From: an uncultured virus (IMG/VR IMGVR_UViG_3300032316_001438)
Taxonomy: Duplodnaviria; Heunggongvirae; Uroviricota; Caudoviricetes
DNA length: 64,000 bases
IMG/VR virus record: IMGVR_UViG_3300032316_001438
Reading direction: 5' to 3' (one strand)
The notes below the pieces were generated by a model. The model saw nothing but the letters and a program-made list of their open reading frames with translations, made no database searches and had not been told where the DNA came from. The translations under genes and the position numbers were made by a program. Below are positions 3,668-61,266 of this stretch, one piece after another. Position 1 is the stretch's first letter. Every line of letters begins with the position of its first letter.

Positions 3668-3815
3668 TGTTTATTGTTTTTTGGACGTTTACTGATGCAA
3701 TAATCACACTATATTTCAGAATATCCAAATTTGCGCGTTTCACAAAAAAAGACGGCTTAGGTATATGTATTGGTAAAAAATGTATATTGCACCAACGTCC
3801 AAAACCAATACAAGC

Positions 3816-6800
3816 ATGGAAGCATATCGCGAGATTATAGCGCTTGCTATTAGCACAATAGAAGCAGACAGATTTTCAGAAAAATATCTTGTGAAAAGAC
3901 CTTTCGATGGAGAGGATAGGTATTATCTGCCCACAAAAATACAGCCATCGGCAAACCTTAAGACCGACGCAGCCAGAATTAGCAAGGCTCTGGATGAAGC
4001 TGCAGAAAACGGAATATTGATAAAGAACGGTAAAATGGTTCTGGCCAAAACGGGCTCGGAATTAACCGGTGATACGATACTTGCCATGGTGATGGCCTTA
4101 GAAAAAATCCATACCCCCTACCTGGCTTCTTTTAAGATCCTTGGCTTTGACTACAACTCCTTTATGATAAAACAGCTCTCGGAGCTAAAAGAGACATTGA
4201 CTGCGAGTGATTTTTCAGCATTGGGTGTTCAACCGACCCGCACCAAAAACATATATATAATAAATGACGACAAAGATAATCCCATTAAGATAACGCCAGG
4301 CCGCAATGGTGGTAATGCGAAATGGCTGCAAACAAAAACAGGAGTTCCTATTGATGGATTCAAAGGCAACATGTTCGGCCTTTATGAGTACCTCACCCAG
4401 CACAAAGGGGTTGGTAGAAGTCTTAACGATAAAATAAAAGACTGTTACCGGGATCTCAAGAATGGCATCAGTCTTAGTCAGAGTATATCCAATGAGATAC
4501 GGATGCAATCAGGATTACCCCTGCAAGAGGGAATCAGCGAAAAGACAAGTCAAATAAAATTGTTCTCTAAACCCTCCGTACTAGAGATGGTAAAACATCC
4601 GGAGATTCCACACAAACCCCTTCAGGATTCATCACGATACCTTCGGTACCGGGGCATAACGCTTGAGACAATAAAGGCAGAGCCATTCAAAGATTTGCTC
4701 GGGACCGAGCTATCTATAATGGGTGATAAGCCAGAAAAGATGAACTACCGGCATGAAGATGCCATATTCAAACCTCTCTATTTTGTATACAAAGACATCG
4801 ATGGCCGGATAATTAATAAGGAGTTTAAAAATTATTACACTCGCAAGGCATTAAAAAAACTGCGAGAGAAAGACCCTACAGAGAAAAGAAGCTTCCCCAG
4901 ACATACCGGCCCCAGAGCGTACAGCCTGTTCATAAGCAACATCCCAAAAGACCCCTCGCACATCGTGCTAATTGAAAGTCCGTTAGATTGTTTGAGTTTC
5001 TATCAGTACCATAAAAACAAGCCCGGATATGGATGGATAGACAAAGCTGTTTTTATTGCCAATGGTGGGTCAATGAGCGAAACGCAAATTCCAATAATTG
5101 ACAAGATAATTGCTGAAAACAAAATCAACAATGTGATGTTGGCCAGCGATAAGGATATGCAAGGTCGTTCATACAACTTAACGTATCTGGGGGTTTTAGG
5201 TGCCGTTGAAAGTAGATTCAGGATCAAGCACAAGGACGGTGAAGGAACCTTCATAGACGCTATCGATGATAAGTCAGGAGATCTGGTGAGAAAGCTATTT
5301 AATCAATTAGAGGCCGCAAAACTAAAAGGCGGAGTCACATTAGTGACAGAAGAGGCAAGCGCATCGATTAGGTTTTTCTACACCGAAGAGAACTATTTAA
5401 AGGTCGGCCAACAGATCGCGCAAGTCAGAAAGGAGACGGAGCTAAAATTCAGAACGATCTCGCCGAGCTCAAGTAAGGATTGGACAGACTTACTGATAGG
5501 CAAAAAGGGTGAGGAGCCATTGCTCGGCAATAGGCCACTAGTGAGTTGGATTAGGAATAGGGAAAAATTTGCCAGGGTAAACCAACTTCAACTCAAAGAA
5601 ATTCAGATCGGTGATATGGGCAAACAATGGAGCATAGCTGCCAAAGGTGAGAAGCTAGGCAAGTTAGACCTGGAGACGATGCGATTCACACCTTACAGCC
5701 ATCAAAGAGAGGCGTTCGTATCAGAGCAAATGAAGGCTGTTCGCCAGGAGATTAAAAAAGTGGTTGACTTTTATTCGCAAGGAATAGACAATCAGGCGAT
5801 GAGAGCCGCTCAAACAGAAACAGTACGTTTGGATGGAGACATATTGCTGGCTGGCAATAACCCGATTGCAAAAAAGGAGGGCTCTAAGATCATTCTATCC
5901 GATGATATAGTTCTAAGCGAAGCTGTAGAGGATAGGCTTGATCTTATGCAAAAGATGCAAAAAGGATTGGATGCGATGGAGAAACAAGGTATCGAAAGGA
6001 ACGGTATCGATATGGACAGCATACTGGTAAGCGTTGGAAACAAAGTTTTTCTCGGGGAGTCAGGCAAGTATCATTTGTTTAATGTTGGAATAGACATGAA
6101 TTTCAATCCAACACCATTATACAATAACTGGTCAACAACGAAACATCCACTAGTGCCGGTAGTTGATAAATTACTCGTTCAAGTAAAAGGCGCAATACCT
6201 GAAAAAGAGTTCGTGTCGCTCGTACCCAATTCAGAGGTGGTGGTGAAAAATGAAGAGTTGTACTGGAACGGTAAGCTGGGTAAACTAGATGAACACAGCC
6301 GGTTTGAGTTGTTTGAGAATCGGTTGAGGGATAATATCCCGACCGATGTGTACGAAAAGATCGAGGAGTTTCAGAAGCTAGGAGCGGAAGAGTATAAAAG
6401 GCGGGTGAACTACGAGAAAAGAATAAGGGTAGACGTGGATATGAATTTACTCATAGACAAGAAGGTACTTGGGAAGGTATCCATGGACCAAAATAACAAC
6501 CCAACCATTACCTTGCCCGCAGGGGCTGTGGGACTCGCCGAACTACTGGTAAAAGCAGGCCTGCAACCGGGAATTATATCTATTGGTGACCAGAAGTATG
6601 AGCCGGTCAAAGAGACAACCAAGTCAGAGGTTTCACAGAGAAGAGTCGTAAGGCTAGAGCAAAGTGATGGAAGCATGAAGGTAATGGTTGGTGATATGGT
6701 GATTGGTTCCTGGGATGCGGAAGCTCAAAAAATTGAGCTGGATAAGAGACTTGGCACTCCAAACGAAAGTATCGCCAAAGAAATCGAGAAGTTGGAATTA

Positions 6801-8114
6801 GAGCAGCGTGAAAAAAGGATGGCAACCGCAATGCAAGCAGCGCTTGTGCAGAACCCCGAGAACATTGTTCTAAAAACAGCCACAGAGAAGCTTGAAATAA
6901 ATGCCAGTGCATGCCCAACCCCTGAGGTGTTTGCCGTAGCTGTGGCAACCCAACTTAGAGAGGATGAGCAGAGCAAAGTGGTATCAGCAGTAACCGATGA
7001 CAAGAAAGAGCACAATACGCTGGAGCAGGCTTGGAATAGTCATGCCGAAAAACACGGCAAACAGGAAATGTCATCGCTAAATCCTCTGTCACCTGAAAGA
7101 CTTAACCAAACTGACCAGAACAAGGAAAGCGATATCTGGTTGAAGGGTACTTGCATATTAAAAGATGTGTTAGACGATCCGAAATGGAAAGGTATCTTAA
7201 TTGAGAATGAGCAGGGAAGTTTCATTAAAGGCCATCACAATAGAGAGTTAAAGCCCATTTATGATCTGGGTACATTTTCCTTTTTGGATAGCGGCTTTGT
7301 AAGAACAAATATTGCTGATCGAATAGTTTACCATGAGAGTTGTGTGATTGCCCAGGACGTGCAGGCGTTGATGGCGTACTATCAACTTAACAGAGATACA
7401 ATTGCTTATGATGACAAGGTAAGCTTGTTTGCGCCTGCTGATCCGGGAAGTCTGAAACTGTGCGTCTTGAGTGCGGCATTACTGAAGCCAAAAACAATTG
7501 TATTAATTGGTGATAAACCAATGGCGGAGAGTTTAGAGCAATACAAAAACTACCTAAGTGATATCGAGATCAAAAGAATATCAGAAGGAGAAGTGATTGC
7601 GAACTTCCATCAAGAAAGGGAGAAATCAGCAAGGCCCAGCAATCCAAGATACGATATTCTAAAAAATGCTGATCTACCCGGAGCGCTATTTGATGATTCT
7701 AAAAAAGAGGTATATCTACCTACTTATAAAGGTGTATTGGAAAGTGGGCGAGCAGAGTTAGTTGGGACTCTAAAAATTGTCCCAGGGGAAAATACAACAG
7801 CACTCATCGCCACTGATAGAGGCGTATATATTCCACGACTGCCTACAGGAGTTAATGATCCACTTTTCGTTTCAGGCACAATAAATAATGAGTTTATCGA
7901 GCGCACAAAAGCCGGTGATTTCACTTTGTTAGCGCCTCAGAAAAACAATGAGATGATCGATAACCTAGCCACTATTTACAGCATACCCAAGAGCAACATT
8001 ATAAAAATTGATGACAACGAAGATCCTAAAATGAACTACAGCACTGGGCATAAAAATGAACTACCCCAACAGCAAGAGATCATAGAATCTAAACAAGCAA
8101 CATTAACGTTTTAA
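3816..8114 (+). CDS. Large TOPRIM-domain (primase-like) protein
   Basis: RYLRYRGI, IVLIESPLDCLSFYQ, ANGGS and LASDKDMQG motifs typical of plasmid Toprim proteins; start moved to ATG 3816 because a promoter-like element overlaps the upstream ATG. Confidence 0.75.
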   Translation: MEAYREIIALAISTIEADRFSEKYLVKRPFDGEDRYYLPTKIQPSANLKTDAARISKALDEAAENGILIKNGKMVLAKTGSELTGDTILAMVMALEKIHTPYLASFKILGFDYNSFMIKQLSELKETLTASDFSALGVQPTRTKNIYIINDDKDNPIKITPGRNGGNAKWLQTKTGVPIDGFKGNMFGLYEYLTQHKGVGRSLNDKIKDCYRDLKNGISLSQSISNEIRMQSGLPLQEGISEKTSQIKLFSKPSVLEMVKHPEIPHKPLQDSSRYLRYRGITLETIKAEPFKDLLGTELSIMGDKPEKMNYRHEDAIFKPLYFVYKDIDGRIINKEFKNYYTRKALKKLREKDPTEKRSFPRHTGPRAYSLFISNIPKDPSHIVLIESPLDCLSFYQYHKNKPGYGWIDKAVFIANGGSMSETQIPIIDKIIAENKINNVMLASDKDMQGRSYNLTYLGVLGAVESRFRIKHKDGEGTFIDAIDDKSGDLVRKLFNQLEAAKLKGGVTLVTEEASASIRFFYTEENYLKVGQQIAQVRKETELKFRTISPSSSKDWTDLLIGKKGEEPLLGNRPLVSWIRNREKFARVNQLQLKEIQIGDMGKQWSIAAKGEKLGKLDLETMRFTPYSHQREAFVSEQMKAVRQEIKKVVDFYSQGIDNQAMRAAQTETVRLDGDILLAGNNPIAKKEGSKIILSDDIVLSEAVEDRLDLMQKMQKGLDAMEKQGIERNGIDMDSILVSVGNKVFLGESGKYHLFNVGIDMNFNPTPLYNNWSTTKHPLVPVVDKLLVQVKGAIPEKEFVSLVPNSEVVVKNEELYWNGKLGKLDEHSRFELFENRLRDNIPTDVYEKIEEFQKLGAEEYKRRVNYEKRIRVDVDMNLLIDKKVLGKVSMDQNNNPTITLPAGAVGLAELLVKAGLQPGIISIGDQKYEPVKETTKSEVSQRRVVRLEQSDGSMKVMVGDMVIGSWDAEAQKIELDKRLGTPNESIAKEIEKLELEQREKRMATAMQAALVQNPENIVLKTATEKLEINASACPTPEVFAVAVATQLREDEQSKVVSAVTDDKKEHNTLEQAWNSHAEKHGKQEMSSLNPLSPERLNQTDQNKESDIWLKGTCILKDVLDDPKWKGILIENEQGSFIKGHHNRELKPIYDLGTFSFLDSGFVRTNIADRIVYHESCVIAQDVQALMAYYQLNRDTIAYDDKVSLFAPADPGSLKLCVLSAALLKPKTIVLIGDKPMAESLEQYKNYLSDIEIKRISEGEVIANFHQEREKSARPSNPRYDILKNADLPGALFDDSKKEVYLPTYKGVLESGRAELVGTLKIVPGENTTALIATDRGVYIPRLPTGVNDPLFVSGTINNEFIERTKAGDFTLLAPQKNNEMIDNLATIYSIPKSNIIKIDDNEDPKMNYSTGHKNELPQQQEIIESKQATLTF

Positions 8115-18719: not shown

Positions 18720-20810
18720 TTATACTCTATCAACTGTATTTATGTATCCTTTCGTAAGTGAACCTAAGACAAGGCCAGTGATTCGATGTCTAATCAATCC
18801 ACCGGAATCAATATGATCTCCCCACAGCGTCATTATACGCACCCCCTTAGCATCGAAATGGTCAGGGAAAAGAACCTTCTCCTGACCTAGGTTCTTGAGT
18901 ACGGCGTCCCTGGAAAATTGATCAACAAGCTCAGCAGCCTGCCAGGAGATGTATCTGTGTTTCTTTACAGCTATTTCGTGATAGATAGTATCATTATCCA
19001 GCGGTGCATCACCCTTCTCCCCAGACTTGGAAACGAAAGGAGCGAATTCGTGATCTCGTTGTTTTTCTTTCGTGTCCGGTAGAACATTAAAGATACTGGA
19101 GTATTTACCATTAGTCTCCGATACCTTGCCAACCATGCGGCCAACGTCTAACACAACAAGTTCTTCATCCTCAATTAGGTTAAGTCGGGTGGTAGAAAAG
19201 CTTGAGCCAGTCTTCTTTCCATTCTTAGATGTAGAAACTGATTCTTGTTGTTTTTCGGCCCGACCTATCATTCGGGCAACAAGTCCAGCATCCTCAATAG
19301 AAGAACTTTGAAGATAGATATGGGTACCCAGAGTTCCGGTAATATTACCGGCGAGCTTATCTCCATACTTAGATTTTATTTGACTTAAAGCTTGACAAAC
19401 ATAAATGTGCGCAACTTTATTGGATCGCGCTGTAGCCGGACCTGAGCTATCGTAATTAGGTATATACAACGTAGGTGCTTCATCCAAAGCAAAAACAGAG
19501 TGCAGCTTGTTGGGAGAGTTGAGCTGCTTCATAATTACAGTTGCAATAAGAGCTACAACAGGCCCGTAAGTACCCTGTCTTGCAACGCTGTTCCCAAGGC
19601 ATAATAGACCGGGAGCCTCAGGGTTGTTGAGGTCTAAAGAGAAATCATCTTCGCTAAGAACATAACTAATCTCTGGGGAGTTAATCACATCGGCAGGAAT
19701 CAATAAAGAGGCAACCTGGCCGGCAAGCTGGCCTTCAGCTTTCTTTCTGTCTGCCATTGCTAAAACTTCAATCATACGGGATGTTTCCTCATCAGTCTTT
19801 AGCATTGCTATTACTTTCTCGTATGGCATCTGAGCGATGGCAATTGCATGCGGTATGGTACATAGCGCAGGGGCTTTAACTTTTAGAAACCAGAAGATCG
19901 TCTTTAAGATAACCACCGAAGATTTGTTAAAGAAGTCAGGCTTCTCGATCATATTAGGATCGAGGTTTGACAATAGTGTGATTGCCATCTCGTTTGCGTC
20001 GGAGGCGGTCTTCATGTACTTAGGCGAGATAGGATTGCAACGATGGCTGCGAGCCAGATCAGCAAAGTCAATGCACCATAGTTTTCTTTTATCTTCCTTG
20101 CCCGATTGTATTCGGTAGTTGATAAATTGATTGTGAACATACTTAGTTAAAACAGGAGATTTAAAATCGTAGATGAGCCCGGTATAGCCCTTCCAAACTA
20201 CTTGATCAAGTATCGGCTCCATCGCCTTCCAGCCCTTACCCGACCCCGCATTTCCACAGACCAACACCCCACGGAACGGATTTACGACGTTTATATACCC
20301 ATCCTTTTTGCTGTACCAGTTGAAGCTATATTTGTTCTGGTCCAGTACGTCAACTCGTTTAAATCCAAAAGGCTTATTGAGCAAGTTGGGAGTAGACTTT
20401 CGAACCATGTTGAAAGCTATAAATGCTGAGACCAGGTAAAAACATAATACCAGAGGAAAGCCAACAATGTACCTTGGGACATTGACAGGGAGTAGTAATA
20501 GGAGGGTGTAAGCTGACAAACCAAAGCCAACCCAAGACAGGTATTTGATTATCGAAAACTTATCCATAAAATCACTGACAGTTGAGTTCCTATCAAAACT
20601 CAGAAAGGCAAGGAAAGAAATCAGAAGAAAAGACAATCGAATAGGGTAGGGGTGCTGTAAAGCAAAGCCGAAATTCTTTAACAACTCAGGGTCGATAGGG
20701 AGTATATCGGACTTAGTGCAGAGTATATATTCGAAGATAAAAATGAAAAGCAAAATGGACATCGCGCCCAATGCTATCTTATTAGAGTCGTTACCTTGTG
20801 ATTGAGACAT
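18720..20810 (-). CDS. virD4: Type IV coupling protein (VirD4/TraD-like)
   Basis: N-terminal TM helices, INVVNPFRGVLVCGNAGSGKG Walker A, SHRCNP, ALDEAPTLY Walker B, ATARSNKVA. Confidence 0.92.
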   Translation of the reverse strand: MSQSQGNDSNKIALGAMSILLFIFIFEYILCTKSDILPIDPELLKNFGFALQHPYPIRLSFLLISFLAFLSFDRNSTVSDFMDKFSIIKYLSWVGFGLSAYTLLLLLPVNVPRYIVGFPLVLCFYLVSAFIAFNMVRKSTPNLLNKPFGFKRVDVLDQNKYSFNWYSKKDGYINVVNPFRGVLVCGNAGSGKGWKAMEPILDQVVWKGYTGLIYDFKSPVLTKYVHNQFINYRIQSGKEDKRKLWCIDFADLARSHRCNPISPKYMKTASDANEMAITLLSNLDPNMIEKPDFFNKSSVVILKTIFWFLKVKAPALCTIPHAIAIAQMPYEKVIAMLKTDEETSRMIEVLAMADRKKAEGQLAGQVASLLIPADVINSPEISYVLSEDDFSLDLNNPEAPGLLCLGNSVARQGTYGPVVALIATVIMKQLNSPNKLHSVFALDEAPTLYIPNYDSSGPATARSNKVAHIYVCQALSQIKSKYGDKLAGNITGTLGTHIYLQSSSIEDAGLVARMIGRAEKQQESVSTSKNGKKTGSSFSTTRLNLIEDEELVVLDVGRMVGKVSETNGKYSSIFNVLPDTKEKQRDHEFAPFVSKSGEKGDAPLDNDTIYHEIAVKKHRYISWQAAELVDQFSRDAVLKNLGQEKVLFPDHFDAKGVRIMTLWGDHIDSGGLIRHRITGLVLGSLTKGYINTVDRV

Positions 20811-20908: not shown

Positions 20909-21047
20909 CAAAAGTGCCACTGTGGCATTTATGGAAAATAGCTTTCGGAACGTGAGTTATAAAGCAAAAGTGCCACTGTGGCATTTATGGAAAATAGCTT
21001 TTCAGATCGTGAGTTAAAAAAGCAAAAAGTCCACTGTGGACCTTTTG
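20909..21047. repeat. Direct repeats (~56-58 bp, 2.4 copies) with palindromic CCACTGTGG core; candidate parS
   Basis: CAAAAGTGCCACTGTGGCATTTATGGAAAATAGCTTT at 20909 and 20965, partial third copy at 21023; immediately downstream of parB. Confidence 0.8.
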
Positions 21048-22664: not shown

Positions 22665-24476
22665 TTAGATCCCCATTCCTGACCTATTATCATGTTCAAA
22701 ATTAGTGGTATTACTTAGACTCTGCGACTCACCCCGATCGCCCCTAGAGTCATTAGCTGCTTTAAGCACAATTTTTATAGCTGCCGACATCTTCTTATCC
22801 CTAATCCAACTAGCATCAGGGAGCGTATCCATCACCCTGGTATGATAGTAGATCACATCCATAGACTCTGAGCTGCCAAGCGCCCTTCTTAACAGGAAGT
22901 GATCCTTTTTCTCAATAGCGGCGTCAAATAGATCGCGTATCTGTTTTCTAACTAGCTCTTTCCTTGTCAAAAGATAGCTGTTTCTAGACTCCAGGTTATT
23001 CAATGTCAACGCTCTTGAAGTGACAAGGTCCAAAATCTGTCCTGACAAACTATCATCAGAAAGTATAGACCGGGTATCAACACATGTATTGGGCTTTGAA
23101 TCGACCTTAAGTAGCCTGGACATCTCGGGGACATCTCCATTACCCATAGCTTCGAAGAACCGGATAGTATTAGGGTTTACAAACTGGTATTCCGCCAGGT
23201 GCCTTTGCCTGTAATACTCAGAAATATTAGTGGGGCTTGCTGGCTGGTCCTTATCGATCTCTTTACGCGCCCTGGATACTTCTGCGACAGTGACCGGATC
23301 TAGAAAGCGTAGGTCGTCCTTAGCAATACGGTCTGTAGATGCACCTTCCAATATAGCCTCTATCGCACCCTGAGTATTTTTGGACTCAAGACAGACCATC
23401 ATTTTCCGGTGAGCCGACGGCTCAGCGAAAGGAGTCGGCATATTTCTATGCCTGAAGTTATGCCTTGAAAAGTTATTGGAACGAACTGGTAGATTTTCTA
23501 GTGTAGCTCCACTCACAAGCCCATTAATGGAATCATATTGGAACAAAGGCCCTAGCTTACTAGCCCTCACTGACCAGGCCCTAAAATCGGCTGGTGGATT
23601 AATGCCTGAAGGGTGGATACAGGGTATACCATTAGGCCATCTACCCGAATGAAGTTCAACCCCAGCCAAAGCCCTATAACTGAAGCCCTGAACCCTTGGA
23701 AGGGTAGGGTAGGAAGCTAAAGGAAACTCCGACTCAACCCTGAACCCTTTCTCCTCGTCTGAGCCTATAAGCCTATAGGATACACCTACCTTAGAAATAC
23801 CTGACAGGGTTCTGAATGGTTTGAAATAGACATCCACTCCGCGTCTACGCATTCTCTTTATAAAAACAGGAAGGGTGGGAGTCCCATCTACCGATGACAT
23901 GAATGCTTCGCGGATGTATTGGTTAGGGTGCATCTCCCTTGAGGTTTCCTTCTGCTTAGCTTCCAAATAGCCCTCTAGCCTCACACCATCAACCACCCTC
24001 TGATCCTCAGCCCTAACAAGGCCGAACTCCTGCTCGAATCTTCTGGCCAGTTCTCTTTGACGCAAGCCATCAAAGCTATCTGAGGCCACAAGTCCATTCT
24101 TCTTAACCCTTGTCGCAACGATATGCAGGTGGGGGTGCTCCCGATCGTAGTGGCGATAGACGACATAAGGTGTATCCGACAAGCCTAATTGCTTCAATGT
24201 CTTGAGCGCAATACTGGACATGGTGAGGTCGGAAGGGTTATCTTCAGCATGAAAAGCGATCTTAAGGTGTATGAATTTATTCTTAGCCCTACTGTTGATT
24301 TTAGCCCTGGCGTTCAACTCCGTCTGAATGGAGCTAAAGCTCTCGCCTCCGGTTCGTATATTGGTTAATAGTCTCTTTGCGGCAATACTACCGTCCTCAA
24401 GGGTCTGGTCAAGCTTTGACTCATTGTAGGTCACGCTTGCCTTCGAGCTATTAGACTTGGTGTTAAGTATCCGCAT
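22665..24476 (-). CDS. Relaxase (MOBP-like HUH)
   Basis: N-terminal Tyr (VTYNESK), HLKIAFHAED and YVVYRHYDREHPHLHIVATRV 3H motif. Confidence 0.92.
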   Translation of the reverse strand: MRILNTKSNSSKASVTYNESKLDQTLEDGSIAAKRLLTNIRTGGESFSSIQTELNARAKINSRAKNKFIHLKIAFHAEDNPSDLTMSSIALKTLKQLGLSDTPYVVYRHYDREHPHLHIVATRVKKNGLVASDSFDGLRQRELARRFEQEFGLVRAEDQRVVDGVRLEGYLEAKQKETSREMHPNQYIREAFMSSVDGTPTLPVFIKRMRRRGVDVYFKPFRTLSGISKVGVSYRLIGSDEEKGFRVESEFPLASYPTLPRVQGFSYRALAGVELHSGRWPNGIPCIHPSGINPPADFRAWSVRASKLGPLFQYDSINGLVSGATLENLPVRSNNFSRHNFRHRNMPTPFAEPSAHRKMMVCLESKNTQGAIEAILEGASTDRIAKDDLRFLDPVTVAEVSRARKEIDKDQPASPTNISEYYRQRHLAEYQFVNPNTIRFFEAMGNGDVPEMSRLLKVDSKPNTCVDTRSILSDDSLSGQILDLVTSRALTLNNLESRNSYLLTRKELVRKQIRDLFDAAIEKKDHFLLRRALGSSESMDVIYYHTRVMDTLPDASWIRDKKMSAAIKIVLKAANDSRGDRGESQSLSNTTNFEHDNRSGMGI

Positions 24477-25330: not shown

Positions 25331-25960
25331 TCAAGCGGCAACTAGATCAGGGAACATTCTTCTGGCCTTTTTCTGTAGATATGAAAACTGACCCTTAGCA
25401 TCAACCTTGGAGACATTGAGCATCTCTGAAACATCTTCAGAATTGAACCCTTGAAAGAATAGGGTATGGAAGGATGAAGCTTTAGAGACTGCAGGGGTGT
25501 AGTTTCCCTTTGCAATCCTAACCACGTCACGGTGACTAACGTGAAGCTTCTTACCTACTGCCGAAAGAGACTTACCCTTACCTATCTCCCTGGCAACAAG
25601 GGTAGCCTTCGACTTTGGTGCCGTGATTGCCTTGGACACTATTTCTAGATCTAGGGCTAGGTCAGAGTTGTAGCTCTTGCCTGAGATGCGCTCATCAAGC
25701 TCACAGGACAAAAAAGCCTTGGACTTGCGAAGGAAGTTAGAGAAACAGTTTCTAACCGAAGTGAAGATGAAAGAATTGACGGTAAGGCCAGACTTGTTCT
25801 TATTCCAATCGGATAGTACATTAACTAGGAAGTCTTGAACTACATCCTCTTGGGTGGTGAGGTCAATGCGGCCATAGGTCTTGGCAATAGCTCTGGCATA
25901 TTGTTTCGCCTTTAAGGTTGCCTGGTTAATCAGCTTCAAATCTTCACCGGAGTAGTTCAT
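25331..25960 (-). CDS. Divergent ECF/sigma-70-like factor
   Basis: Region 2-like QEDVVQDFL and SFIFTSVRNCFSNFLRK; region 4-like QGFNSEDVSEMLNVSKVDAKGQFSYLQKKAR; start MNYSG. Confidence 0.75.
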   Translation of the reverse strand: MNYSGEDLKLINQATLKAKQYARAIAKTYGRIDLTTQEDVVQDFLVNVLSDWNKNKSGLTVNSFIFTSVRNCFSNFLRKSKAFLSCELDERISGKSYNSDLALDLEIVSKAITAPKSKATLVAREIGKGKSLSAVGKKLHVSHRDVVRIAKGNYTPAVSKASSFHTLFFQGFNSEDVSEMLNVSKVDAKGQFSYLQKKARRMFPDLVAA

Positions 25961-26096
25961 AAAACAAAAGGTTAGAGACAACAGCAATAGTGAGAACCAG
26001 ATCAAAAACTCAAACCCGACCGCCCCTTTCGTTCATCGGGATAAGAGAAAAAAAGCCCCGCAAAAAATGGGGAACGGGGCCAGGAGGGTAAAAAAA

Positions 26097-26255: not shown

Positions 26256-26333
26256 AGGTTAGTAACTTTGATAATTAGAGTCTAATCAGAAAGGAAACTC
26301 AACAACCGACCGCCCCTCCACTAGACACATAAT

Positions 26334-26421: not shown

Positions 26422-27324
26422 CTAATTCATAGCCCAAACACCGCGCGACACATTTACAAAATGTTTCTGGAGTATTTGCCTGATCTTGGCCTGGACGTGG
26501 TTGTTAGACCCAGTTCTGGCTCCTGCTATTTTCAACACTTCTTCGTAGATCATGGGTAGGTTAGATTGACCACCCAGATTTATGAGTGCCATTCGTATAT
26601 AGTTTCGCCATGTCATCTGGATATCAGACTGCAGGCCGGAAGCCTTGTCCCAGCAAATTTGAGCGAGCATGCGAGAGCTACGTTTCCAGAGTAAAAGGTA
26701 TTCGTGCATGATGGGTACGAAGCGATTAGACTGATAGGTTTTGAATCCGCTTCGGGTGTTGTGTTGGGCTTTGATTACCACTGAAATGAGTTCGGACTTG
26801 GGCATCATTTTTATGAAGTCGGCCTGAAAGGAGTGAAACAGACCGTTCTTTCTCATGTCTCCTATCAGCGTACAATAGTGACCGCCAGGCATGGTGGCTT
26901 CACGCTGGTTCAAAATCATCAGTTGACTCATTTCGATGAACTGGTCTACGGACTTGCACTGGGACAGGTCGTTGATCTGATCTGGGGCTAGGGGAGAGAC
27001 CTTCCCGTGTTTTGCTCTCTCCTTATGGTAGTCAATCATGTCGTGATAGGGAGGGTGGGTGAAGCAGGTGTCTGCCGGCCTTTCGAGCTTGCTGGCTATT
27101 GCGTGCCTGGTGAAGTCGAAGCCTGAGTGAAGGTCTAAGCCTACATAGTCTACTTTCATCTCCTGACAAACATCAGCACTCGTTCCGCTCCCATGACAAG
27201 CGTCCACGAAGAGCTTAGGTTTTAGGTGGGTGATAAGGTCGCGGATGATGTAGCCGGAGGTATTGCCTCTGTAGTTTGAGGAGCCGTACTTTCCGCGATC
27301 AGGGTAGGAGACTATGGAGTTCAT
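26422..27324 (-). CDS. Orphan amino (m6A/m4C) DNA methyltransferase with C-terminal winged-helix-like domain
   Basis: FVDACHGSGT SAM motif, THPPY catalytic motif; C-terminal NNHVQAKIRQILQ...RGVW. Confidence 0.85.
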   Translation of the reverse strand: MNSIVSYPDRGKYGSSNYRGNTSGYIIRDLITHLKPKLFVDACHGSGTSADVCQEMKVDYVGLDLHSGFDFTRHAIASKLERPADTCFTHPPYHDMIDYHKERAKHGKVSPLAPDQINDLSQCKSVDQFIEMSQLMILNQREATMPGGHYCTLIGDMRKNGLFHSFQADFIKMMPKSELISVVIKAQHNTRSGFKTYQSNRFVPIMHEYLLLWKRSSRMLAQICWDKASGLQSDIQMTWRNYIRMALINLGGQSNLPMIYEEVLKIAGARTGSNNHVQAKIRQILQKHFVNVSRGVWAMN

Positions 27325-27326
27325 GG

Positions 27327-27512
27327 TCAGGCGTATTGAAGTTCGGTTTCTAATGAGATTTTTTTTCGGTTAAGACTTTCGATCTTACGGTTGACCAACT
27401 TTACAGCTTCTTGGTAGCCATTGCTTTTAGAATGGCAGGCGGATTCTATCATCTCCAACTGCAGTTCCAGTAGTACCAGGCATTTGTCTTTATCGGAAAT
27501 ATGGTCGGTCAT
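27327..27512 (-). CDS. Small coiled-coil hypothetical protein
   Basis: 61 aa, 2 nt from the MTase start. Confidence 0.65.
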   Translation of the reverse strand: MTDHISDKDKCLVLLELQLEMIESACHSKSNGYQEAVKLVNRKIESLNRKKISLETELQYA

Positions 27513-27542
27513 TGGGATACTAGTTGAAAATGGGTTTTAAAA

Positions 27543-27629
27543 TTGTAAACAGGGGAGGACTTTAACCTCAGTCTTTCGCTTTCCATTTGGGGCAAGCGAA
27601 CGCATTTGTCTTTTATGCTAACCCTGTTT
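27543..27629 (-). ncRNA. tRNA-like cloverleaf RNA (8/4 fold, elongated anticodon arm)
   Basis: AAACAGGG/CCCTGTTT acceptor, GCAT/ATGC D arm, TTCGCTT/AAGCGAA arm, GAGG-TTAAAGT-CCTC T arm, 3' ACAA. Confidence 0.55.
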
Positions 27630-27700
27630 GTTCCCTTCTGCTCTTGGTGATAGGCCGGACTCTCACCGGCCAAGCCTTCGGGAAATGTCTTGTCACGATC

Positions 27701-27877
27701 TTATCTGGCGATCTCTTTTACATGTCCGCCATCGATCTTCAAGGCAATTTTAAGTCTGTTAAGTCTAGCCTCCGCCTTGTCTACAGCCTCGTAAATAGAT
27801 GCGGCTTTCTTTATTGTGAATCTTCTTGAGCAGGCGTTGAGATTTTGGGAGGTGAAGTTGACTTGAACTTGGTACAT
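27701..27877 (-). CDS. Small hypothetical protein
   Basis: Start MYQVQV; motif copy upstream. Confidence 0.65.
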   Translation of the reverse strand: MYQVQVNFTSQNLNACSRRFTIKKAASIYEAVDKAEARLNRLKIALKIDGGHVKEIAR

Positions 27878-27997
27878 AGTTTCAATTGTTTGGTTGATTA
27901 CAACAGCGCGGAACAAGTATTGGCACCCACACCGACCGTCCCCGGCCCTGGCCTGGTGCTAGACCTTTTCAAGATGCGCGTAAAATGAAGGAGCCTG

Positions 27998-28192
27998 TCA
28001 ATTAAATGTCAAAGCCTCTTCTGGCACCATTGCGATAATCTCTGCTTTTTCTTCTTTGGTAGCCTTTCTGGTGGAAGTTCCAAAGGAGTAAAGGCCGTGC
28101 TGAAGGTTGTTGAGTGAGTTGATCAATGATTGTGCATCATCTTCATGACAGGCTATTGAGACGGACACAATTTTGAATTTTGTGTTTTTCAT
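27998..28192 (-). CDS. Small hypothetical protein
   Basis: 64-aa co-oriented ORF. Confidence 0.65.
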   Translation of the reverse strand: MKNTKFKIVSVSIACHEDDAQSLINSLNNLQHGLYSFGTSTRKATKEEKAEIIAMVPEEALTFN

Positions 28193-28218
28193 AAGATATG
28201 GGTGATTCTAAAGGATTT

Positions 28219-28251
28219 AAAAAAAAACCGGCTAGGAACCACCCTAGCCGG
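28219..28251 (-). terminator. Intrinsic terminator after ssb
   Basis: CCGGCTAGG-AACCAC-CCTAGCCGG with U tract on minus strand. Confidence 0.8.
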
Positions 28252-28271
28252 AAAACCTAAACAACGTATCT

Positions 28272-28643
28272 TTAAGCGAATGCTTCTTCTCTCTGCTCGG
28301 CTGCTACCGCTGGCTTGCTTCCACCAATCATGTTCAATTCATCGACCACGATTTCGGTGGTATATCTGGTGATTCCGTCTTTCTCCCAAGAGCGGGTTTT
28401 GAGTTTTCCACTCACGAATAGTTGATCTCCTTTCTTCACGTACTTCTCTGCCACGTCAGCTAATTTCCCGAAAATGCTGCACGAATGCCATTCTGTGATT
28501 TCCTGAACCACACCGGCTTTGTCCTTGTACTTTTCGGACGTTGCCAAAGAAAAGCTGGCTACCTTGTTTCCGTTGTCGAATGTGCGTACTGCAACATCCT
28601 TTCCTACACGACCCATTAAAATGACTTTGTTTACTCCTGCCAT
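28272..28643 (-). CDS. ssb: Single-stranded DNA-binding protein (short tail)
   Basis: VNKVILMGRVGKD, TEWH, KKGDQLFVSGKLKTRSWEKDG. Confidence 0.97.
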   Translation of the reverse strand: MAGVNKVILMGRVGKDVAVRTFDNGNKVASFSLATSEKYKDKAGVVQEITEWHSCSIFGKLADVAEKYVKKGDQLFVSGKLKTRSWEKDGITRYTTEIVVDELNMIGGSKPAVAAEQREEAFA

Positions 28644-28747
28644 AGTTTTGTTGTTTAAGTGAAAAATAGATTAAGAAATAAATACGAATGGATAGCTGAG
28701 TATGAGAGGAGAAGCCAAACACCGACCGTCCCCAAAATTTTCAGAAA

Positions 28748-29947: not shown

Positions 29948-30379
29948 CTAAAAAGGTAGGTCGTCTGTTCCGTTATCCACAGGGGCATCCTGTTGTGATG
30001 GCGCAGGTGCGTTGCCATTTGTTGGCGCTCCTACTGATGGCGTTGACTGCTTGTTTCCGATCAATGTCAAATTGTCGCCAACCACCTCGGTTGTATAGCG
30101 GGTTACATTGTCTTTTTCCCAACTGCGTGTGCGCAGCTTTCCTTCGATATACACCTGATCGCCTTTGCGCAAATACTTGGCCGCAATGTCGGCCAATCCA
30201 CGCCAAAGAACTACGTTATGCCATTCTGTGATTTCCTTGCGCTCGCCAGTGGTCTTGTCTTTATAAGTTTCTGAGGTGACCATTGAAAAATTGGCCACTG
30301 TGGCGCCACTATCCAAATTGCGTACTTCGGGATCCTTCCCTAATCTGCCTACTAAAATTACTTTGTTTACTCCTGCCAT
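29948..30379 (-). CDS. ssb: Single-stranded DNA-binding protein (acidic DDLPF tail)
   Basis: Canonical SSB OB fold and C-terminal DDLPF. Confidence 0.97.
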
Positions 30380-30479
30380 ACTGTTTGTTGTTTAAGTGAA
30401 AAAATTATTAAAGAATAAATACGAATTGATACTTACAAAATTACGCAGCCACACAAACCCGACCGTCCCCGAGAAAAAT

Positions 30480-31146: not shown

Positions 31147-31465
31147 TACTATTTCATTAAAAAAGTCAAAAATTAAACTGCCAAGCTGATCAAAAGCTAT
31201 TTACGCTTCTTGCGTTTCTCCCTGTTCCTTTAGCAAGTCTGCACATGTTTCTTCTTAGCGAAGTGCTGCTTGTATTCTGGATCGTCCTTGAACAGAAGCA
31301 TCCCAGAGGACGATACAAGTATCGTTGGTCGTTTGCCGTATCTTAGTTCTGTCGTCATATTAATATTCTTTTACAGGTTTAACAGGCTGTATCGGGACTT
31401 AATACCTAAGCGAGCGATCCACCAAGCTCGACCGTCCGAGGGTCGTTATCTTCTTGGCAAACCGA

Positions 31466-32051: not shown

Positions 32052-32149
32052 AGATGAATAGTTGATTGACTTACGCTAAAGTTGTGACCAGTACCCAAGC
32101 CCGACCGTCCCTTGCTATTCCGCCAGGAGATCCAAAGTCGAGTATTTGT

Positions 32150-32623: not shown

Positions 32624-32766
32624 AGGTTGAAAGTTTAGTTGAGATGAATTGCTGTTACGAGAAGGTAGACGTCAGTAATGCAGCTAAACCCGACCGTCCC
32701 ACGCCTGAAAAAATGCAAAGGGAAAAATTCTCTGCCGACGATCCCAGAACTAGCCCATGCTACAGC

Positions 32767-33105
32767 TCATAGTGATAGTCTAGTCAAGGCCTTGGCCTTG
32801 GTCTTAGACTTGATCGCGGTCTTGCCCGATTCGATGCGAGAGTCAATGAGTGGGTCTACTACTGCTACCCTCTTTCCGGATTTCACTAAAAGTGGCAGGT
32901 AGGAGTCTAGGCTCAGCGAAGGGAACCATGAGAGCTGCGTCTGGTCTGGCTTCTTGCTGAGTATGGTGCCGCACAGCTCTGAGAGGGTGACCGCATCATG
33001 ATCGAAGGCTTCATAGAAGTCTCCTACTCTGAATAAGATCACGGCATCCTGATAGCGAGCCTTTATGTGATCGTACTGTTTTTTCAGTGGGCTGTTTTTG
33101 AGCAT
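32767..33105 (-). CDS. Stand-alone MutS domain I protein
   Basis: PLKKQYDHIKARYQDAVILFRVGDFYEAFDHDA...YLPLLVKSGKRVAVVD. Confidence 0.9.
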   Translation of the reverse strand: MLKNSPLKKQYDHIKARYQDAVILFRVGDFYEAFDHDAVTLSELCGTILSKKPDQTQLSWFPSLSLDSYLPLLVKSGKRVAVVDPLIDSRIESGKTAIKSKTKAKALTRLSL

Positions 33106-35314: not shown

Positions 35315-35417
35315 AGAAGATGCGATTTATGCTACTGCAGCTCTCAGCCACATGACAATGAAAGCCCGACCGTTCCAAGACCAGAAAATGCGCTTAGTTA
35401 TAAGGGATTATTTAACA

Positions 35418-37308: not shown

Positions 37309-38579
37309 GTGACACTCTCCATCTAAACAATAAGTTATAGATGGAGCTTCTCAGGCCCACGGGTAACCCCGATTGTATCTCCTGATGGGAATGCCCTTCC
37401 CAGTATGTTATTAGCGGCTACATAATCTGCGTGCTTTGTATACCCGCAGCCCAAGCAAAGAAAAACAGCCTGTGTCTTTCTGTTTCCTTTTTCAGTATGA
37501 CCACAGCACGGACACTCTCTACTGGTGTTCTTTGGGTTCACTTTTACAAATGTGCGTCCATACCAGTCTGCTTTATAGATGAGCATACCAAAGAAGGAAT
37601 AACCAGCGACATCCATCAGGCTTCTATTCAATCCTGATTTCTGTTTCACCATCCTTCCCGGCTCTTCGAGTGTACCCTTAGCCGACTTGGTCATATTGCT
37701 AAACATCAGCTCCTCCGCTACGATAACTTGGTTTTCGTTTATCAAACGGGTGCTTAGTTTTTGCTGAAAGTCATTTCTTGAGTTCCTCTCTCTGAAATAT
37801 AGTTTTTGCAGTGAGATTACTTCGTTCTTTCTCCTGGCAGACCCTTTCTTCTTGCGGGCGATGCTGCGCTGTTTGATTTTTATCCTTTTTGCAAATGATT
37901 TTTTGATCTGAGGATTAGCAACAAATTCACCATCGGAAGTAACAATGTAGTTAGTTACTCCAATATCAATTCCAATCTTTCGATCATTCTTCCCCAGGTG
38001 GTAGACATCAACTTCGCCCATCAGCGATATAAACCAGCCAGTCGGTTCTTTTATAATCTTTCCTTGTTTTATAACAAATGTCGATAGATCGCGTTTTCCT
38101 GAGAAGAAAGAAAGCTCACCGAACTTAGGTAGGAATAATTTGTTTCCTCTCAACACAACACCCTGTGGAAAGGTAAAGGATCGGTATTCTCCCTTCTTAG
38201 CAAACTTTGGAAAGCCTTCACCACGGAAGAAGTTTTTATAACTGCGCTCAAGTCTAACTAAAGGATCTTGCACCACTTGAGAGTGAACAGATTTTATCCA
38301 AGGGTATTCCCCTGCCAGCTGCTTTACCTGAAGCTGTAGCTCTGATTTGCTGACGCTGACTTTTTTCTTTTGGTAAGCCTGAATGCGTGTATCGAGCGCT
38401 AAATTATAGATGAGCCTACACACACCAAGCCATTGGTCGAGCTTTACAGATTGCTCCCTTGTGGGTTTCAGTTTTAGCTTGTATGTTGTGATCCTTTTTG
38501 GCATTGTTAATTCTGATAATGGTGTCAATTCATCTCCCACTAAATGAAATTATAGAGGGAGAATTCTTGCAAATTATTG
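37309..38579 (-). mobile_element. IS200/IS605-family TnpB-only element (IS1341-like)
   Basis: Subterminal hairpins at both ends (CTCCC...GGGAG ~38528-38570; CTCCATCTA...TAGATGGAG ~37317-37346), right end GTCAC, TTTAA immediately 5' of left end; no tnpA. Confidence 0.8.
37335..38504 (-). CDS. tnpB: RNA-guided endonuclease TnpB
   Basis: YKLKLKPT HTH, RuvC IGIDIGV / VAEEL / HADYVAANNI, CPCC...CLGC zinc finger; start MPKRIT. Confidence 0.95.
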   Translation of the reverse strand: MPKRITTYKLKLKPTREQSVKLDQWLGVCRLIYNLALDTRIQAYQKKKVSVSKSELQLQVKQLAGEYPWIKSVHSQVVQDPLVRLERSYKNFFRGEGFPKFAKKGEYRSFTFPQGVVLRGNKLFLPKFGELSFFSGKRDLSTFVIKQGKIIKEPTGWFISLMGEVDVYHLGKNDRKIGIDIGVTNYIVTSDGEFVANPQIKKSFAKRIKIKQRSIARKKKGSARRKNEVISLQKLYFRERNSRNDFQQKLSTRLINENQVIVAEELMFSNMTKSAKGTLEEPGRMVKQKSGLNRSLMDVAGYSFFGMLIYKADWYGRTFVKVNPKNTSRECPCCGHTEKGNRKTQAVFLCLGCGYTKHADYVAANNILGRAFPSGDTIGVTRGPEKLHL

Positions 38580-38759: not shown

Positions 38760-38833
38760 AACAATGTGTGATTTGAAGTCAACTATACATCAATCAGGAA
38801 ATGGACTCAACCCCGACCGTCCCCCGGTGCCAG

Positions 38834-38889
38834 CGGAATAAAGTTTCCTTCGTTCCGGAATAAAGTTTTAGCGTTCCGGAACAAAGTTT
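38834..38889. repeat. Three repeats CGGAAYAAAGTTT, 21-22 bp period
   Basis: Directly visible downstream of the C5 MTase. Confidence 0.85.
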
Positions 38890-38894
38890 TTGTT

Positions 38895-39779: not shown

Positions 39780-39840
39780 AGCGATTAAGGTTTGCTATGG
39801 GTACTCACCCCAAATAAAGCGGCCTAAACCCGACCGCCCG

Positions 39841-39922
39841 AGTTCGAAACTTTATTATTCGCAGTTCGAAACTTTATTTTTTTTAGTTCAGAACCTTATT
39901 ATTTCCAGTTCGAAACTTTATT
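39841..39922. repeat. Four repeats AGTTCGAAACTTTATT, exact 22-bp period
   Basis: Starts at 39841, 39863, 39885 (degenerate), 39907. Confidence 0.9.
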
Positions 39923-39933
39923 TTTCTAACTAG

Positions 39934-44450: not shown

Positions 44451-44629
44451 ATTTTGAATTATTAGAACTCTTTCTACTGCTTCACTGGGGCACATACCTT
44501 TTCGACAAAACACTTCCCATAAATATTTTAGTTAAGTACCTGTAGCTTTAATAATGGAAGGAGGACACTTTAAACCAAACCCGACCGTACCAGGCCCTGA
44601 AAAAATGCCATAATTATATTTCGCATTAG

Positions 44630-45391: not shown

Positions 45392-45453
45392 ATCGCTATT
45401 GATAAACAAGCGTTGAATACACCGAACCCGACCGTCCGGAACTAAATGAAAGA

Positions 45454-47410: not shown

Positions 47411-47458
47411 AGAAGTAGAGGATTATAGTTACCCAACCCCGACCGTGCAAACCGTATT

Positions 47459-58038: not shown

Positions 58039-58236
58039 AACCAAGTCTTAATCCGCTTGATTAAAAGTAAACCAAAAAATATAAAATTGCAAACACCACT
58101 CTAAACCTTATAGCAAATACGCTTGGCCTCAATTTTATAAATACCTTTCAAAATCATAGATTTGCGAGCGAACGTCCAAAATAAAAGGACAGAAAATTTT
58201 ACGCGGCCCATGCCGGAAAGTTCCAAAAAGGAAAGT

Positions 58237-61052: not shown

Positions 61053-61266
61053 AAAATGCCCTTCGAGGTAACTAATCTCGCAGAACAACGTCAAAACCTA
61101 AACCTTAAAAGAACGATAGTTACAATCATTATTAAAAAGAGAGCAGAGACCTAAACCCCGACCGTCCGGGCGCGTTCTCGAAAAAAATGGCTAAAATCAA
61201 TTAAATTTGGTAAGGTGTTTGCTAACACACACTTGATCTCAAAAAAAAGGATAAAAACAAAGCTAT

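Follow-up and report, generated by a model that had tools for sequence, protein, structure and literature searches.

A cloverleaf between two small genes

The DNA analysed here, IMG/VR record IMGVR_UViG_3300032316_001438, is a stretch of 64,000 nucleotides (nt), referred to below as the window. At 27543-27629 on its minus strand lies an element whose RNA is predicted to fold into a cloverleaf similar to that of transfer RNA (tRNA), within a spacer upstream of a small gene and a DNA methyltransferase (methylase) gene. A first-pass annotation, made from the letters alone, had described this element as a tRNA-like RNA that does not decode, and the minus-strand letters at 27543-27629 are identical to the string that it gave. 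The element is built from the following parts.

27547..27629, minus strand: cloverleaf core as folded by RNAfold; the 3' tail extends to 27543
27629-27622 paired with 27554-27547, minus strand: acceptor stem of 8 base pairs (bp)
27621-27619, minus strand: connector UUA, 3 nt, from the acceptor stem to the D arm
27618-27602, minus strand: D arm, 4 bp with a 9-nt loop
27601, minus strand: single G between the D arm and the anticodon arm
27600-27575, minus strand: anticodon arm, 26 nt, of 7 bp plus two inner C-G pairs
27593-27582, minus strand: loop of the anticodon arm, 12 nt
27574-27570, minus strand: variable loop, 5 nt
27569-27555, minus strand: T arm, 4 bp with a 7-nt loop
27546-27543, minus strand: 3' tail ACAA, with no encoded CCA

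All 23 pairs of the four stems are Watson-Crick pairs. A fifth pair in the T stem would be a U-C mismatch. The acceptor and T helix is divided 8/4, and these two stems (8+4 bp) adjoin each other with no nucleotide between them. RNAfold returns the cloverleaf as both the minimum-free-energy and the centroid structure (-26.5 kcal/mol, z score -3.55), with one of 200 dinucleotide shuffles equally stable; the fold is kept in 211-nt and 501-nt contexts, and when 87 to 801 nt are folded, pairing in the four stems has mean probabilities of 0.70-0.97. The 8-bp acceptor stem, 4-bp T stem, 7-nt T loop and 5-nt variable loop drawn by the first-pass annotation are thereby reproduced, and its remaining anatomical remarks agree with the sequence: the D loop has one G only and hence no GG, the T loop reads TTAAAGT and lacks TTC, the anticodon arm measures 26 nt and the end is ACAA. 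A candidate intrinsic terminator on the plus strand (27554-27577) was rejected as merely the complement of the T arm and variable loop. A 12-nt direct repeat links the D arm (27602-27613) with the 5' part of the downstream 61-amino-acid (aa) gene (27480-27491, minus strand), with an E value of 0.62, and is probably due to chance.

The genes and features around the element all lie on the same strand.

27927..27941, minus strand: one copy of a promoter-like motif that recurs in the window, 49 nt before the 58-aa gene
27701..27877, minus strand: 58-aa gene with an ATG start; an alternative 71-aa frame starts from TTG at 27916
27513..27700, minus strand: spacer of 188 nt, holding a hairpin and the cloverleaf
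27631..27684, minus strand: hairpin domain 5' of the cloverleaf and one base from it, an outer 5-bp stem around a G+C-rich hairpin
27509..27673, minus strand: 54-codon open frame across the element, with a TGA that overlaps the ATG at which the 61-aa gene starts; the enlarged loop contains an AUG of this frame (27586-27584)
27327..27512, minus strand: 61-aa gene, finishing 2 nt before the methylase start
26422..27324, minus strand: orphan N6/N4-type DNA methyltransferase (PF01555, 31.6 bits)

Read from 27700 downwards, the spacer consists of 16 unstructured nt, the hairpin, one C, the cloverleaf and a 34-nt A/U-rich leader that reaches the AUG of the 61-aa gene. The hairpin (27631-27684) has a folding energy of -22.4 kcal/mol (z score -2.2; 4 of 200 shuffles), is also seen in the 211-nt and 501-nt contexts, and abuts the predicted cleavage site of ribonuclease (RNase) P. 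The motif copy at 27941-27927 is likely the start of a transcription unit, and the next copy past it is found beyond the methylase, near 26312. The motif, the 58-aa gene, the spacer, the 61-aa gene and the methylase thus appear to form one operon that contains the element in sense orientation. No sigma-70-like or other promoter-like site was found in 26900-28400, which includes the spacer, and the spacer itself has neither a match to the Bacteroidota -7 box nor a copy of the recurrent motif.

Judged by sequence, both flanking small genes are real. The relatives of the 58-aa protein (8 of 8 distinct ones, 79-83% identical) end at the same ...AR, and the 61-aa protein has one homologue (62% identity, E 8.5e-14). 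The longest contig of this homologue measures 7,520 nt, as does that of one relative of the 58-aa protein, and the two may be one contig. Homologous methylases occur in 888 plasmid records, 784 of them typed as conjugative, and so are common on conjugative plasmids. Beyond its TAA, the frame of the 58-aa gene (27509-27916, minus strand) meets no other stop across the entire spacer until a TGA that overlaps the next ATG; this open frame past the conserved TAA may be a side effect of the G+C-rich stems. We considered and rejected the spacer as a truncated C-terminus of the 58-aa gene, because the stop is kept in 8 of 8 relatives and a read-through query had no longer homologue; since the position of the stop is conserved, the spacer is not a decayed tail of that gene.

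Likeness to tRNA

The Rfam tRNA family RF00005 matches 27548-27627 on the minus strand with 31.2 bits, against a gathering cut-off of 29, at an E value of 0.015 that covers both strands of the 64 kb times 4227 families. This is the sole match to the tRNA model within the window at E <= 10, and the plus strand of the element gives none at that threshold. We also scanned the window with a custom relaxed cloverleaf pattern, which accepts 7/5, 8/4 or 9/3 branches, flexible loops and anticodon loops of up to 17 nt. When only Watson-Crick pairs were accepted, the pattern found a single locus, the element, and no locus in any of 16 dinucleotide-shuffled windows; when G-U pairs were allowed, three loci were found in the window against a mean of 2.8 per shuffle. 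These counts together indicate that loose cloverleaves are common and perfect ones are not.

Passages of one account of tRNA structure (PMC7609411) name U8-A14, G18-Psi55 and G19-C56 as tertiary contacts. In the RF00005 alignment, the element carries tRNA-type residues at U8, A14, A15/U48, G18, A21, G26/A44 and G10-C25 with G45, and in the T loop at U54, U55, A57 and A58. Residues at these positions build the L-shaped core and the T-loop motif of a tRNA. The connectors between the arms, with lengths of 3/1/5/0, follow the order of a tRNA on the minus strand only. Because the connector order and the core and T-loop residues agree in the Rfam register, we regard the element as tRNA-shaped rather than as a generic junction, and the likeness to tRNA is probably real.

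The same element departs from tRNA where decoding takes place. The norm given in parts of PMC7609411 is a 7-nt anticodon loop over a 5-bp stem, whereas the loop here has 12 nt over a 7-bp stem or, counted differently, 16 nt over a 5-bp stem; the would-be positions 32-33 (U-U) and 37-38 (A-A) pair together, and 12 nt stand in place of the three anticodon positions. An element with an anticodon loop of 12-16 nt instead of 7 cannot decode, and in this respect the first-pass annotation, which had called it tRNA-like but non-decoding, is supported. It keeps the "top half" and the core positions of a tRNA, and six of its pairs, two of the acceptor stem and four of the anticodon arm, go beyond the tRNA model. 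Compared with the canonical tRNA of RF00005, it therefore shares the four arms, the 12-bp acceptor/T stack, the 7-nt T loop, the 5-nt variable loop and a score above the gathering cut-off, and differs by its 8/4 rather than 7/5 split, its 3-nt connector, its 12-16 nt anticodon loop, A19/A56 and the missing CCA.

The first-pass annotation had proposed a search with ARAGORN at relaxed thresholds. In that search, the element is called with introns allowed (-i) or with lowered thresholds (-ps) and in no other way. The -i reading has an 8-bp acceptor stem, a 3-nt connector and a 9-nt insert (33/34) before a GGA triplet. We rejected the intron-bearing tRNA-Ser(GGA) that this reading implies, as the 9-nt insert sits at 33/34, the long variable arm is missing and such splicing is not known from bacteria. 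A recently decayed tRNA gene was likewise rejected, because the element has no likeness in primary sequence to real tRNAs or to a phage collection. Global alignment to 22 distinct tRNAs of one genome from another phylum gave a best score of 9.5, whereas shuffled versions of the element scored 8.3 +/- 1.6 and reached 9.5 in 49 of 200 cases; blastn against the phage collection returned one 22-nt match with an E value of 3. Within the window, the element has no further copies.

The 8/4 split had led the first-pass annotation to invoke allo-tRNAs, and this kinship is not supported. In the parts of PMC5389517 (Mukai et al.) that concern them, allo-tRNAs combine a long variable arm and a long, tetraloop-capped D stem with a normal anticodon loop and a Ser-type identity, and are found in Clostridia, Proteobacteria and Acidobacteria; some allo-tRNA-like sequences are described there as translation-inactive and linked to mobile or toxin-antitoxin loci. 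The element shares with the allo-tRNAs (8/4 or 9/3) a 12-bp branch split 8/4 and nothing else of this kind: its variable loop is 5 nt long, its D stem has 4 bp and closes a 9-nt loop, its anticodon loop is oversized and its host resembles Bacteroidota. An allo-tRNA identity was rejected on the features of the variable and D arms.

A possible RNase P-cut mimic weighed against chance

Of the readings considered, the one that we favour, though we would not yet call it probable, is a tRNA mimic that is embedded in the operon and would be cut by RNase P, perhaps also by RNase Z. The first-pass annotation had offered an RNase P processing signal beside a tRNA decoy and a structured leader. A substrate of RNase P has about 12 bp of coaxially stacked acceptor and T helix, closed by a T loop. 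The element has this shape, with its 8+4 bp stack and 7-nt T loop. We infer transcription of the element, its cleavage and an effect on expression in the following form. The element would be co-transcribed in one operon message running from the motif at 27941-27927 through the methylase, and the enzymes that process tRNA ends would recognize the T loop and the 12-bp acceptor/T stack and disregard the anticodon arm. RNase P would cleave between 27630 and 27629, where the acceptor stem begins on its 5' side, and RNase Z or an enzyme like it might also cut on the 3' side. The upstream message would then end right after the hairpin at 27631-27684, the methylase message would gain its own 5' end before the A/U-rich leader, and an RNA of about 85 nt would be released.

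Of the known systems, the closest counterparts of the element in its proposed action are tRNAs and tRNA-like folds that set sites of RNase P cleavage within longer transcripts. MALAT1-mascRNA is such a case, a tRNA-like fold within a longer transcript that is cut by RNase P. In the relevant part of PMC5389517, tRNAs are said to share processing RNases and the CCA-adding enzyme, and EF-Tu to read the 12-bp branch; a bacterial example, reported in parts of PMC2241853, is E. coli secG-leuU, a mixed mRNA-tRNA transcript processed by RNase P. The likeness to secG-leuU and MALAT1-mascRNA consists of a tRNA shape inside a transcript, of a top half that suffices, and, on the side of the element, of a stable structure upstream. 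The difference is that the bacterial examples are real, decoding tRNAs, while for the element cleavage would have to follow from its shape.

The strongest competitor of this RNase P-cut mimic is the absence of any function, the cloverleaf having arisen by chance in a fast-evolving spacer or being a tRNA relic of great age that is tolerated there; we consider this unlikely, though it deserves serious weight. Several observations weigh against a processed mimic. The score of 31.2 bits is borderline against the cut-off of 29 and far below the 48.5-74.8 bits that the same model gives to the tRNAs of one bacterial genome (n=37), and ARAGORN at default settings reports no tRNA genes in the window. 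For the tRNA family alone, the E value per window is about 3.5e-6 (0.015/4227), so that about one such match would arise by chance if some 250,000 windows were screened. In an 87-nt sliding energy scan, the windows of the element rank only 118th (plus strand) and 344th (minus strand) of 21,306, which is unexceptional, and cloverleaves that tolerate G-U pairs average about 2.8 in each shuffled window. The element has A at both 19 and 56, so the G19-C56 pair is missing while G18 and U55 are present, and the elbow may therefore be weak; the base preceding the acceptor stem is C, and no CCA is encoded. The frame through the whole spacer is open and ends in an ATGA overlap, an arrangement taken up below as a translated leader.

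Also on this side, the element is known from one sequence and is present in a single copy in the window, and it is missing from the distant methylase loci described next. Megablast and blastn of the region against plasmid and phage collections gave no match, nor did tblastn of the 61-aa and 58-aa proteins against plasmids; an exact-pattern scan of viral contigs and a search of the same contigs with a profile of the 58-aa family each returned zero hits. Loci anchored on methylases of 50-59% identity were obtained from genome contigs (1), metagenome contigs (4) and plasmids (3), with none from viral contigs. In these eight distant methylase loci (53,205 bases) there is no tRNA-like match at E <= 1, and the small genes upstream of the distant methylases show no homology to the region of the element; since the element is missing from all eight, it is not a conserved part of that type of operon.

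Against an accident stand the 23 Watson-Crick pairs, a fold of a kind that appeared in 0 of 16 shuffles, and the six pairs that the element forms beyond the tRNA model in its acceptor stem and anticodon arm. About 10% of the window is non-coding, and the element falls within that share and in sense orientation. A recent relic is unlikely because of the missing primary-sequence likeness to the 22 tRNAs and the phage collection noted above.

Conjugative context and further alternatives

The window is a conjugative element, and its host looks like a member of the Bacteroidota, of Cytophagales type.

1-2325: VirB4/TraG-type ATPase
18720-20810: coupling protein
22665-24476: MobA/VirD2-type relaxase, with a NikA-like gene alongside
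25331-26005: extracytoplasmic function (ECF)-type sigma factor, divergent

The window also encodes ParA and ParB-like genes. Its protein clusters at >= 90% identity are named from metagenome-assembled genomes of Cytophagales, with MCA6367660.1/MCA6367661.1, MCA6372290.1/MCA6372291.1 and MCA6382435.1/MCA6382436.1 as close relatives from such genomes, and the best plasmid matches of the VirB4-type protein are Hymenobacter plasmids, at about 30% identity. An array of about 39 kb, made mostly of small genes co-oriented on the minus strand, is transcribed toward the NikA-like/relaxase module; it contains two single-stranded DNA-binding (SSB) proteins, the N6/N4 methylase, a C5 methylase, a MutS-domain-I protein and an inserted TnpB, and the SSB and methylase genes are situated near the NikA-like/relaxase module. 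Co-oriented SSB, methylase and small genes are described in parts of PMC11541004 as typical of leading regions, which are presented there as a hotspot of anti-defence genes. From gene content and orientation, the array is leading-region-like, and its assignment to a leading region, the part that would adjoin oriT on the side entering first, is a well-founded inference. The first-pass annotation had already placed the element in a leading region and at a methyltransferase operon; its site just upstream of that operon is supported, and the gene content and orientation fit what those parts of PMC11541004 describe. Two primase-type proteins are encoded opposite to the array, one of 1444 aa with Toprim_2 (3780-8114, plus strand) and one of DnaG type with 725 aa (58162-60339, plus strand).

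Such a setting invites the idea of an anti-defence tRNA mimic, an early decoy or inhibitor of tRNA-binding or tRNA-cutting effectors in the recipient, such as anticodon nucleases, with the enlarged loop as bait. We regard this as improbable. The element would be among the genes likely to be the first to enter and be expressed, in a region that PMC11541004, in the parts concerned, treats as an anti-defence hotspot; the L-shape core is kept and the anticodon loop altered; and passages of PMC11464382 report that PARIS is neutralised by a virally encoded tRNA. The likeness to such phage anti-defence tRNAs is that of a tRNA-related RNA on a mobile element near counter-defence genes, but the phage tRNAs of that source are functional and replace cleaved host tRNAs, whereas the element is non-decoding. 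However, the complement of the enlarged loop is not enriched in the window (5 matches against 5.8 expected), and the element occurs once. A full-text search of the literature returned no paper that combines tRNA-like folds with leading regions and conjugation. The combination of the two ideas, in which an early tRNA mimic, excised by RNase P/Z from the operon that the recipient transcribes first, would soak up or block tRNA-targeting nucleases or tRNA-sensing factors while the methylase guards the DNA, seems to us very unlikely.

Comparably improbable is a signal in single-stranded DNA, in which the incoming plus strand would form a mirror-image four-way junction and serve ssi-like priming or assembly for complementary-strand synthesis. 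The plus strand is taken as the incoming one because it is the template of the array genes, and as DNA it folds equally well because all pairs are Watson-Crick pairs (-15.2 kcal/mol, z score -3.94, 0 of 200 shuffles). The conjugative element encodes a DnaG-type primase and a large Toprim protein, and parts of PMC11541004 report Frpo/ssi signals from leading regions, Frpo being a long hairpin whose -35/-10 boxes imitate a double-stranded promoter. Like these signals, the element is structured and lies ahead of early genes, in a spacer of the putative leading region. It does not fit them in that it is a four-way junction with no long hairpin carrying -35/-10 boxes, in a segment (26900-28400) with no promoter-like site, and in that its tRNA-type connector order and conserved positions exist on the RNA-sense strand only, as the plus strand is without a tRNA match at E <= 10. 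Its single copy also speaks against this role.

A translated leader has, in our estimate, a small chance of being correct. Here the 54-codon frame, or a 25-codon frame from the AUG at 27586, would be translated and, by way of the ATGA overlap, would supply the 61-aa gene with ribosomes, a coupling that the fold would gate; the frame is open over the whole spacer and the AUG is exposed in the apical loop. However, the 54-aa product has no homologue and is missing from the protein collection, the read-through form has no long homologue, and the codon-usage score is 0.04 as compared with 0.14-0.27 for the neighbouring real small genes. Least probable of those we retain is a protein-bound cis-regulatory leader, through which, for example, the 61-aa protein or the methylase would autoregulate the downstream genes. 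The element lies within the operon and 34 nt upstream of the start of the 61-aa gene, but the methylase homologues at the eight other loci are without such a leader and no recognised RNA-binding domain is present in the operon proteins. An antisense regulator acting through the enlarged loop was rejected for want of an enriched target in the window.

An RNase P-cut mimic in this position would matter for what is known of leading regions, which have been noted for protein-based anti-defence and establishment genes while structured RNAs in them are hardly explored. If the element proves conserved and processed, it would extend the "tRNA punctuation" of messages to conjugative elements of Bacteroidota and supply a possible RNA effector that is produced within minutes of DNA entry; should relatives turn out not to have the fold, it would be a lineage-specific curiosity.

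The motif at the head of the operon recurs across the array. It comprises 15-16 nt around the core CGGTCGG, in most cases with a T-rich tail after it whose last letter is G, and is placed in spacers, some 50-95 nt ahead of start codons. With up to 3 mismatches allowed, 15 matches occur in the window where 0.79 are expected, and every one is on the minus strand; with a looser core expression, the minus strand has 28 matches, about 20 of them in spacers, and the plus strand has 9. Copies are located as follows.

26011-26025, 27927-27941, 28717-28731, 30454-30468, 31423-31437, 32096-32110 and 32685-32699, minus strand: copies of the recurrent motif
35361-35375, 38808-38822, 39825-39839, 44576-44590, 45423-45437, 47434-47448 and 61153-61167, minus strand: further copies of the recurrent motif

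The motif is probably a promoter or an operator of an element-specific regulator, and the ECF-type sigma factor at 25331-26005 is a candidate for the regulator that acts on it. In DNA folds of the plus strand, the motif is not consistently in a hairpin and gives no sign of a single-strand promoter of the Frpo type. Direct repeats of 21-22 nt at 38834-38890 (2.7 copies) and 39841-39926 (3.9 copies) lie directly upstream of two motif copies; the C5 methylase gene is preceded by one set, the small gene that comes before TnpB by the other, and they resemble operator arrays.

Further features of the array and its flanks were observed. The two SSB paralogues (28272-28643, 123 aa, and 29948-30379, 143 aa, minus strand) each have their own motif copy and a closely similar leader, and each has a strong intrinsic terminator, at 28251-28228 for the former and as a hairpin near 29935-29900 for the latter. 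A TnpB of the IS605 OrfB type (401 aa; 37335-38540, minus strand) lies within the small-gene array. A 112-aa protein among the early genes (32767-33105, minus strand; E 4.4e-20) consists only of MutS domain I, the mismatch-binding domain, and may interfere with host mismatch repair. Finally, between the ParB-like and coupling-protein genes, a tandem repeat at 20909-21039 (56-nt period, 2.3 copies, score 211) contains a short perfect hairpin in each unit and forms the most stable local fold in the window, which makes it a candidate partition site or transfer origin.

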